Shown: in pieces, positions 2,615-3,730 of the stretch | Layout: every line of letters starts with the position of its first letter | Numbering within the stretch: the first letter of the stretch is position 1 | From: a virus | Lineage: Duplodnaviria; Heunggongvirae; Uroviricota; Caudoviricetes | IMG/VR virus record: IMGVR_UViG_2703718779_000017 | Length of the DNA stretch: 14,944 bases | Direction: 5' to 3' (one strand) | Position numbers and translations under genes: made by a program | The notes under the pieces: model-generated | What the model was told of the DNA's origin: nothing | The model's database searches: none | What the model saw: only the letters and a program-made list of their open reading frames with translations

Positions 2615-3730
2615 TCACCCCCTGAATCCCGGCGGAATTTCGGTATCCGGTTCAGAAATATGATTCACACAACGCTGGTTGTTCGTGCCGCTTACCGGGA
2701 GCAACCAGGGGTTTTCAAAATTCCGGTCCGGCCCAAAAAACGTCGTCGCTCGCTGAACAAATTCCGTTCCCGCTTTCCCGGTCGCCGCCAGGTATCTCGC
2801 GTAACGCCTCACACCATCCAGCATGGTCTCTGGTGGCACCCCCTCGCGCAATCTGGCCTTCCAGGCACTGAAAGCGGATTTCTTCGGGTTTGCCCCAGCA
2901 CGCAACGGGTATTCCCGCCAGACCTGTTCGAACACATCCGGATAATCCACTCGTCCCACAGACTGCCCGGTGCTTTCCGGGACTACCCGATCGGCTTCCC
3001 GCTGAATGGCGGAATCGGCTTCAGGCTGCTGCAGTTGGTGTGATTGCTCCGACCCTGCGGTCATCACCTGCTGCACAGCGCCCGAATCGGCTTTCAGCGC
3101 ATACGCTGAATCGGCTTCCGGTGTCGTGCCTGCTGGCTGACCAGGATTGACGGTCTGAACATCCCCTGCCTGGTTCGTGGTGTTTTTTTTGCCATGAACC
3201 ATAGTGTTTTTGTCCTGTTCCTGTTCTTTCTCCTGCTCCTGTTCCTGTTCTTGGCTTCGAAGCCCCTTAAAAGCCCCTTCGAAGCCCCTTACCGAATTTC
3301 GGCTATTATTCCGCCTCACATCCAGATGGAAATCCGTTTTATATCTGTCGTAAAACACTGACAGAAAAGCGTTTTCAGGTAATGATGCATACTCATTCCT
3401 GACACCTGCACAACGGTTATCGCCAGGCTTCAACGTTTCCCCAACCTGCCAGGCTGCCATTTCATGGACCCAGACCATCTCTGCATCATGGTCATAGCTA
3501 CAAAAACCAGCTTCAACAGCCCTTTTAAGCCCCTTTGAAGCCCCTTCCAGACCAAGCCCGGTTTCATGAGCAAGGTATAAAACTGGCAGGTAATACAAAC
3601 CCAGCATATTTGCGTGAGGGGATGTCATCAGGTAAAAAGCAACAACTTGCGCTTCTGCACCCGCCTTTCTAAGTTCTCTCCCCGTTTCTCCCAGCCAGAA
3701 TCGCGGAGAAACTTTTGCGTAATCACGCAT
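2615..3730 (-). CDS. Replication initiation protein (lambda O-like replisome organiser)
   Basis: Start chosen at ATG 3730 because GAGG lies 7-10 nt upstream; the longer ORF from 3841 has no Shine-Dalgarno. Low-complexity (EQ)n linker, C-terminal region resembling the conserved phage replication-protein C-terminus, iteron-like DNA repeats inside the gene, immediately upstream of the DnaC-like gene. Confidence 0.8.
   Translation of the reverse strand: MRDYAKVSPRFWLGETGRELRKAGAEAQVVAFYLMTSPHANMLGLYYLPVLYLAHETGLGLEGASKGLKRAVEAGFCSYDHDAEMVWVHEMAAWQVGETLKPGDNRCAGVRNEYASLPENAFLSVFYDRYKTDFHLDVRRNNSRNSVRGFEGAFKGLRSQEQEQEQEKEQEQDKNTMVHGKKNTTNQAGDVQTVNPGQPAGTTPEADSAYALKADSGAVQQVMTAGSEQSHQLQQPEADSAIQREADRVVPESTGQSVGRVDYPDVFEQVWREYPLRAGANPKKSAFSAWKARLREGVPPETMLDGVRRYARYLAATGKAGTEFVQRATTFFGPDRNFENPWLLPVSGTNNQRCVNHISEPDTEIPPGFRG
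3213..3252. repeat. Hexanucleotide tandem repeat (CCTGTT-like, about 6 units) encoding an (E/Q)n linker in the O-like protein
   Basis: Direct reading: tcctgttcctgttctttctcctgctcctgttcctgttc; translated on the minus strand as QEQEQEQEKEQEQ. Confidence 0.7.
3258..3290. repeat. Iteron-like cluster 1: three tandem 11-bp units (c/a)(g/a)AAGCCCCTT; candidate replication origin
   Basis: Perfect 11-bp periodicity (3258-3268, 3269-3279, 3280-3290). The units are read in three different codon frames by the O-like gene, so conservation is at the DNA level. Confidence 0.5.
3517..3546. repeat. Iteron-like cluster 2: three units of AGCCC(C)TTT at 10-bp spacing, same orientation as cluster 1
   Basis: cagccctttt / aagccccttt / gaagcccctt, about 260 bp from cluster 1 inside the same O-like gene. 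Confidence 0.45.

Follow-up and report, generated by a model that had tools for sequence, protein, structure and literature searches.

Two clusters of a 9-bp repeat lie inside the replication-initiator gene of a lambdoid-type prophage of Escherichia coli O157:H7-like strains, represented here by a 14,944-nucleotide stretch of Caudoviricetes DNA (IMG/VR record IMGVR_UViG_2703718779_000017; hereafter the window). Judged from sequence, a structural model and analogy with known origins, the clusters probably act as iterons for the winged-helix N-terminal domain (N-domain) predicted for the initiator and, with the intervening or flanking DNA, form the replication origin of the prophage. The units are selected as DNA and are specific to one family of N-domains, this domain has a winged-helix model, and the gene that follows that of the initiator encodes a DnaC/IstB-like protein, presumably the helicase loader with which the C-terminal domain of the initiator would interact. 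Placing an origin within the initiator gene is a textbook design, but not one previously described for this N-domain family. Unusual here are the pseudo-palindromic units of 9 bp every 11 bp, a cluster within the region coding for the recognition helix, and a switch of the unit centre that rewrites the encoded peptide.

The exact unit AAGCCCCTT occurs on the plus strand of the window at 3260, 3271, 3282, 3527 and 3538 only, five copies where about 0.1 would be expected by chance for an exact 9-base unit. Since the gene lies on the minus strand, the units read AAGGGGCTT in the gene. An earlier note, made from the letters of this DNA, had counted six copies in two clusters; the clusters are real, but the copies are five exact ones and a degenerate one (3516–3524; ACAGCCCTT on the plus strand, AAGGGCTGT on the gene strand). 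The 11-bp periodicity described there for the cluster at 3258–3290 (cluster B) was borne out by the unit positions, whereas the 10-bp periodicity given for that at 3517–3546 (cluster A) was not, its exact units also being 11 bp apart; Tandem Repeats Finder (TRF) returned a period of 11 for both. The dimer pattern AAGSSSCTTNNAAGSSSCTT, with up to two mismatches, had four matches against 0.02 expected, a number reached in none of 200 shuffles. On the gene strand cluster A reads AAGGGGCTT-ca-AAGGGGCTT-aa-AAGGGCTGT-tg-AAGC and cluster B AAGGGGCTT-cg-AAGGGGCTT-tt-AAGGGGCTT-cg-AAGC, with the conserved half unit AAGC closing each (3510–3513 and 3254–3257). The clusters are about 250 bp apart, their units falling at aa 62–75 and 147–159, with the N-domain modelled up to about aa 143; a short sequence is present in multiple copies inside the initiator open reading frame (ORF), at the boundary of DNA-binding domain and linker, as in origins of this type. 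Cluster A codes for EGASKGLKRAVEA, the start of the predicted recognition helix (aa 60–73). The three units of cluster B are translated in three frames, as had been noted earlier, to give RGFEGAFKGLRS at the disordered end of the N-domain.

Conservation of the repeats in homologous genes, set beforehand in the earlier note as the test of its proposal, proved strong. Units stand at the same gene positions (nt 185 and 196, and a second cluster at about nt 429–463) in six annotated phages and in most of 79 genomic loci, with Klebsiella, Shigella, Acinetobacter and Ralstonia phages among the carriers, and the spacing is always 11 bp, rarely 12 bp. In alignments the third positions of neighbouring codons drift freely and the units are unchanged. 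Codon constraint was quantified for 77 in-frame homologues, from loci of 35–69% GC, aligned by codon. The mean entropy of unit codons was 0.51 bits against 1.78 bits for other conserved codons among those of four- and sixfold degeneracy (p = 7.6e-6), and 0.00 against 0.85 bits among those of twofold degeneracy (p = 6e-4); the Ser codon that forms the 2-nt spacer was free (1.85 bits). Codon by codon, conservation in cluster A was 100% for GAA, 99% for GGG, 80% for GCT, 100% for AAG, 85% for the second GGG and 87% for CTT, and in cluster B 100% for GCC, 96% for CCT and 100% for CCC. In the family logo of cluster A two units are strong and the third is weak, and the CGAAGC half unit is conserved. 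No comparable synonymous constraint was seen elsewhere in the N-domain part of the codon alignment, the stretch between the clusters included. Selection acts on the units as DNA.

AAG and CTT being mutually complementary, the unit is a pseudo-palindrome, AAG-(GGG/CCC)-CTT, and its centre varies. Cluster B reads AAGGGGCTT in the enterobacterial clade, window included, and AAGCCCCTT on the coding strand in most lineages (at each unit slot, 54–58 of the 77 homologues have a CCC centre). The switch turns EGASKGL into EAPSKPL and leaves the pseudo-palindrome unchanged; because it rewrites the peptide but spares the motif, the DNA motif is kept at the expense of the protein sequence. Together with the nearly frozen synonymous sites and the free spacers, this upholds the earlier proposal that the repeat is maintained at the DNA level. 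A protein-level repeat was rejected on the codon-entropy test and the centre switching. Several loci have mixed centres within one cluster B, and intermediates are rare. In cluster A the centre is GGG in 63–69 of the 77 homologues per strong unit slot, rare members having a GCC centre or an extra CCC-centred unit just upstream. Going by the model, the disordered tail encoded by cluster B can tolerate a centre switch. A plausible route is a single template-switching step at the short inverted repeat, which would invert the spacer; a mechanism of this kind has been outlined in general form (PMC8604942). GGG/CCC switching in a coding region offers a clean natural example of DNA-binding-site constraint overriding protein sequence.

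In the initiator an N-terminal winged-helix domain (aa 5–143) is joined through a disordered linker to a C-terminal domain whose tail is DnaT-like, the last 24 residues being similar to the DnaT C-terminus. The N-domain is modelled as H1-B1-H2-H3-B2-B3, with structural matches to known winged helix-turn-helix domains; residues 144–160 have a predicted local distance difference test score below 50 and are predicted to be disordered. In Pfam-A neither the whole protein nor five homologues matched a family at E <= 0.01, Phage_rep_O and Phage_rep_org_N included. The earlier note had compared the arrangement with lambda ori inside an O-like gene; the likeness in anatomy stands, but with no Pfam match to lambda O the term names a role and not a family. 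Among PHROG profiles, 1701 ('DnaD-like helicase loader') was matched at full length (E 1.6e-148, residues 1–371, profile 1–323 of 323), the N-domain alone matched phrog_25210 (function unknown; E 1.1e-99), and a weak match to phrog_6251, 'replisome organizer DnaA-like' (E 1.6e-4), is the sole link to replisome organisers.

The gene is a mosaic, with a junction near 3210. Positions 2617–3210, the C-terminal half up to the end of a (QE)n tract, are the only part that matched known phages by megablast (95–97%; 689R5, Tritos, Evi and others), and from the junction to the stop codon the identity of 95–97% is to phages with a different N-domain. Relatives of the N-domain are found in Klebsiella prophage-derived phages (78% identity), the Stx phages POCJ13 and 75/02 (79.6% over aa 1–137), Acinetobacter phages (~60%), Ralstonia phage NK-7 (62%) and Escherichia phages Fraca, CharmingMan and LMessi (57–59%). 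N-domain and units are joined to several different C-terminal halves, and the downstream genes of these relatives are annotated variously as DnaC-type, 'phage replication protein' or primase-helicase. Escherichia phage vB_EcoS-689R5 provides the converse case, carrying the C-terminal half of the window at 96% identity behind an unrelated N-domain. Its initiator gene (1499–2569) has GTCACG units at 10–11-bp spacing, at gene nt ~129–166 and 389–440, and the second cluster runs directly into a (GATAAAGATACA)3 linker of 12-bp repeats encoding DKDT. The sister initiators of vB_EcoS-689R5, Tritos and Evi have the same layout as that of the window, with two clusters of short units at 10–11-bp spacing, a repeat linker of short period right behind the second and the shared C-terminal half, and differ in the N-domain, the GTCACG unit and the (GATAAAGATACA)3 linker in place of (CARGAR)n. 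A different N-domain on the same C-terminal half comes with different units, and these comparisons indicate that the repeats are specific to the type of DNA-binding domain; the same layout with units differing by N-domain is known from type-specific lambdoid origins. Specificity shows also in the complete genome of Acinetobacter phage B1251 (45 kb, 39% GC), where the five exact units are all at the initiator gene, inside a span of 510 bp.

The gene holds four further repeats, GAAGCCGATTC as read in the gene and AATCGGCTT on the plus strand, in two pairs 24 nt apart at 2990–3121; they are one mismatch from AAGSSSCTT. They are read in a single frame (PEADS, KADS, PEADS, READR) within the C-terminal module's disordered linker. 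They were rejected as a third iteron cluster, given the one frame and their place in a module that is 96% identical in phages with another N-domain. Being common to phages with different N-domains, they have no tie to this one and probably represent either a peptide repeat of the linker or sites that have nothing to do with this N-domain. A separate observation concerns four Undibacterium and betaproteobacterial metagenome-assembled-genome loci, in which the recognition helix starts with AANLAAGL, not EGASKGL, and cluster B has 11-bp-phased ACCTT-type units, not AAGCCCCTT. Helix and site may co-vary in this divergent subclade, but its sequences are few and related to one another.

Table 1. Features of the initiator locus; positions are those of the window.
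Feature	Position	Strand	Description
Cluster A	3510–3546	minus	two AAGGGGCTT units (3546–3538, 3535–3527), degenerate third, half unit AAGC (3513–3510)
Cluster B	3254–3290	minus	AAGGGGCTT at 3290–3282, 3279–3271 and 3268–3260; half unit AAGC (3257–3254)
Replication-initiator gene	2615–3730	minus	371 aa from ATG at 3730
(CARGAR)n tract	3212–3253	minus	seven hexanucleotide repeats encoding QEQEQEQEKEQEQD, (QE)n; TRF period 6
Inter-cluster stretch	3291–3509		219 bp; holds the least stable duplex of the gene, 3330–3369, 68% AT
A-rich run AAAAACACTATGGTTCATGGCAAAAAAAACACCACG (gene strand)	3175–3211	minus	after the tract; 65% AT
DnaC/IstB-like AAA+ ATPase gene	1868–2608	minus	7 bp 3' of the initiator gene; Pfam IstB_IS21 1.5e-19, Bac_DnaA 3.4e-7

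Two stretches are candidates for the region that would be unwound. One is the (CARGAR)n tract, a slippage-prone linker with a purine-rich coding strand that directly abuts cluster B (Table 1). All but one of 85 homologous genes have a (QE)n tract, which in each of these 84 has cluster B directly upstream and which numbers 3 to 32 repeats among in-frame members. It marks the recombination junction between N- and C-terminal modules. The slippage anticipated in the earlier note for the hexanucleotide tract is seen among relatives 100% identical over the first 440 nt of the gene, in which tract length is 5, 6, 7 or 10 repeats. The tract is 6–11 points AT-richer than the locus mean (68 loci). The second candidate is the inter-cluster stretch, in which a nearest-neighbour profile places the least stable duplex of the gene and in which gene nt 350–410 exceeds the locus mean in AT by about 10 points (69 loci). 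A clear AT-rich DNA unwinding element (DUE) after the (QE)n tract was rejected as a general feature; the window has one (3181–3220, 65% AT), but across the family it is not conserved.

If the clusters are an origin, initiation may proceed as follows. After induction the initiator would be produced from an early rightward-type operon, and its N-domains would bind the AAG-(GGG/CCC)-CTT units, each cluster offering two strong sites, a weaker one and a half unit. The 11-bp phasing would align successive sites along approximately one side of the helix. Once occupied, the clusters, with about 250 bp between them, could then form a higher-order complex like the lambda O-some, their separation suggesting a looped or wrapped structure. 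Such a complex might strain easily melted DNA, either at 3320–3380 between the clusters or in the (CARGAR)n tract and A-run at 3175–3253, while the C-terminal domain would recruit the DnaC-like loader encoded just downstream, which would deliver host DnaB.

Several observations weigh against an origin at the clusters. Units of 9 bp at 11-bp spacing are far shorter than classical iterons of 17–22 bp, and the AAG and CTT half-sites, 6 bp apart centre to centre, are too close for a conventional winged-helix dimer. AT enrichment beside the clusters is moderate, with no clearly AT-rich unwinding element adjoining the units; in high-GC hosts the (CARGAR)n tract is itself 50–67% GC, and AT-richness beyond it is not conserved. 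Searches for host-factor sites near the clusters were empty throughout: no DnaA box (TTWTNCACA, up to one mismatch) within the clusters, no IHF consensus in 2400–4600 and no GATC in 3150–3750. A third cluster upstream of the ribosome-binding site in some Acinetobacter loci indicates that some units could serve autoregulation. For the family as a whole we infer initiator binding, the choice of melting stretch and origin activity from sequence and its analogues.

The main rival is a purely regulatory role, in which the units bind the initiator or another phage protein for autorepression, as an intragenic transcriptional roadblock or for fork arrest, and the origin lies elsewhere. Replication-fork arrest has been proposed for SPP1 oriR. 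Some support comes from Acinetobacter. The exact units of phage B1251 include a third cluster, AAGCCCCTT cg AACCCCCTT, at 5611–5630, directly 5' of the Shine-Dalgarno sequence of the initiator. Acinetobacter loci have such an extra cluster just upstream of the ribosome-binding site, at -38 to -18 from the ATG, the position in six relatives other than B1251 being -37 to -15, and some units may well act as operators there. In a few other loci (L150, L140) clusters lie several hundred bp upstream, and no strong AT-rich element was found beside the clusters. Plasmid Rep proteins, moreover, use the same DNA-binding domain at iterons and operators. Yet intragenic clusters are nearly universal, whereas upstream ones are confined to some lineages, and no unit lies upstream of the initiator gene in the window. 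Sites 185 and 440 nt into the ORF are poorly placed for promoter control, and the position at the N-domain/linker boundary fits known origins inside initiator genes. On balance a solely regulatory function appears unlikely.

Explanations that dispense with site-specific protein binding fare far worse. Cluster A might pair with cluster B over a long range, in RNA or single-stranded DNA, forming a stem of up to 22 bp around about 245 nt that controls translation or mRNA stability; in many homologues (L108, L120 and L147 among them) GAAGGGGCTTCGAAGGGGCTTC of cluster A and GAAGCCCCTTCGAAGCCCCTTC of cluster B are indeed perfect reverse complements. However, both clusters have the same centre in the enterobacterial clade as a whole (Klebsiella, Citrobacter, Raoultella, Proteus, Fraca) and in the window itself, so that the G-tracts cannot pair, and long-range RNA pairing was rejected for the window. 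Cluster A shows no compensating change, mixed-centre clusters exist (L091, L096, L140), and a stem does not account for the 11-bp phasing within clusters or for the freedom of the 2-nt spacers. No Rfam match was found within the initiator gene. We regard the stem as very improbable. Hardly more credible is a feature of the protein, a duplicated EGAxKGL motif, or of recombination-promoting boundary DNA. It would account for EGASKGL (aa 62–68) and EGAFKGL (aa 151–157) sharing a frame 89 codons apart, and for cluster B and the (QE)n tract lying at the junction of the N- and C-terminal modules. It does not fit frozen synonymous sites beside free spacer codons, the third frame of the first unit of cluster B, or the change of the cluster B peptide, predicted to be disordered, to EAPSKPL in most lineages; and a recombination linker accounts neither for the 11-bp structure of the units nor for cluster A, placed 250 bp within the module.

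An extension of the origin reading, which we consider doubtful, is that the origin is self-referential. Cluster A would serve as a binding site and also as the stretch that encodes the first part of the very recognition helix reading it, locking specificity to site; the centres of AAG-SSS-CTT would switch by single template-switch events where the peptide is disordered; and the (CARGAR)n tract would be both linker and part of the melted region. If true, the lock could explain the near-invariant 9-bp iteron across hosts of 35–69% GC, and changes in tract repeat number would tune initiation.

The proposed origin shares its anatomy with known systems. In lambda O the N-domain does the binding and the C-domain recruits P-DnaB. 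Lambda ori, with iterons and an AT-rich tract, lies in the middle of gene O (PMC7466680). As in lambda, the repeats of the window lie within the initiator's own ORF at the N-domain/linker boundary, so that they also code for protein, and they travel with the N-domain in mosaics, the C-terminal half going with the downstream loader gene. Unlike in lambda, where one array holds four to six longer inverted-repeat iterons, the window has 9-bp pseudo-palindromes every 11 bp in two clusters, one of them within the recognition-helix coding region, and no clear AT-rich tract. The initiator has no detectable sequence homology to lambda O, and its presumed partner is a DnaC/IstB-type AAA+ protein where lambda has P. 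SPP1 oriL, which combines direct repeats with an AT-rich DUE, lies within gene 38 (PMC6316719). SPP1 gp38 likewise has direct-repeat sites inside its own gene with the helicase-loader gene next, binding being known for SPP1 and predicted here; the N-domain of the window has no Phage_rep_org_N match, however, and SPP1 has a defined AT-rich DUE and a distant second origin, oriR, whereas B1251 has all its exact units at the gene. Likeness to the RepA_N plasmid initiators of Firmicutes (PDB 4pta, 4pt7, 5kbj) is only at the level of fold, with 10–13% identity; these have other hosts, reside on plasmids and not phages, and use unrelated iterons.

The closest described replication type is Eru4, represented by Shigella phage 75/02, for which the first Eru4 protein is given as 'unknown function' and no origin is described (PMC8951638). 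The window falls within Eru4. Its N-domain is 79.6% identical over aa 1–137 to those of 75/02 and POCJ13, the (QE)n linker, unit positions and type of C-terminal half are the same, and the downstream gene is annotated DnaC in POCJ13; cluster B differs in being CCC-centred on the coding strand in 75/02 and POCJ13. In the open-access literature the motif strings returned only unrelated primers or similar sequences, with the tandem 20-mers absent, and no description of the initiator family was found in that on iterons, prophages and replisome organisers. The N-domain family has no Pfam model, and its motif is absent from the literature so covered; the design is familiar, but not from this family. 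The family is widespread and underlies the Eru4 replication type of Stx1 phages. A defined iteron and candidate origin provide a handle on prophage replication after induction, which bears on toxin-gene dosage in Stx phages, and could further serve in typing replication modules, predicting incompatibility of co-resident prophages and building minimal replicons.

Confirmed relatives of the family number 563 in viral contigs and 128 in species-representative genomes, and 373 protein clusters matched as well; the species-representative ones are mainly from gamma- and betaproteobacteria, with a locus GC of 35–69%. Of 5426 complete E. coli genomes, 477 matched the segment 3200–3860, most of them of O157:H7 type and 436 at >=99% identity. 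Plasmids, considered as proof of a self-sufficient replicon, were set aside, the ten plasmid-collection matches being uninformative: the one inspected record, a 32-kb Klebsiella 'plasmid', is a linear contig with chromosomal genes and a prophage, and several others are in records of 0.29–4 Mb, at least three of them chromosome-sized.

The ATG at 3730 is the start in all homologues and in RefSeq. An initiator gene followed by one annotated DnaC or replication protein is found in the same order in Klebsiella, Shigella and Acinetobacter phages. In the window a DUF1627 gene and then a DUF977 gene lie past the DnaC/IstB-type gene, and YdaS/YdaT-like genes and a divergent cI-type helix-turn-helix gene lie before the initiator (Pfam). 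Between the YdaT-like gene and the initiator, on the opposite strand, is a gene for an 'ECs1072 family phage-associated protein' (3809–4264, plus), which the early transcript to the initiator must cross in antisense. It looks like an inserted moron, and a 186-aa minus-strand ORF (3948–4508) overlaps it. The annotation of a near-identical prophage places a RelB/RelE-type toxin-antitoxin pair beside the cI-like gene (5690–6168, plus) and dicB downstream of the position equivalent to that of the DicF antisense small RNA, which Rfam detects in the window at 7797–7848, plus strand (RF00039, 77 bits, E 6.7e-16). Two other tandem repeats were seen: a 21-nt repeat, GAAACAAAACGAGCCAGAAAC, in 4.3 copies at 10018–10107 within an 816-aa exonuclease-like ORF, and an 11–12-nt repeat, TTGGTATAAAA, in about 2.8 copies at 12500–12531.

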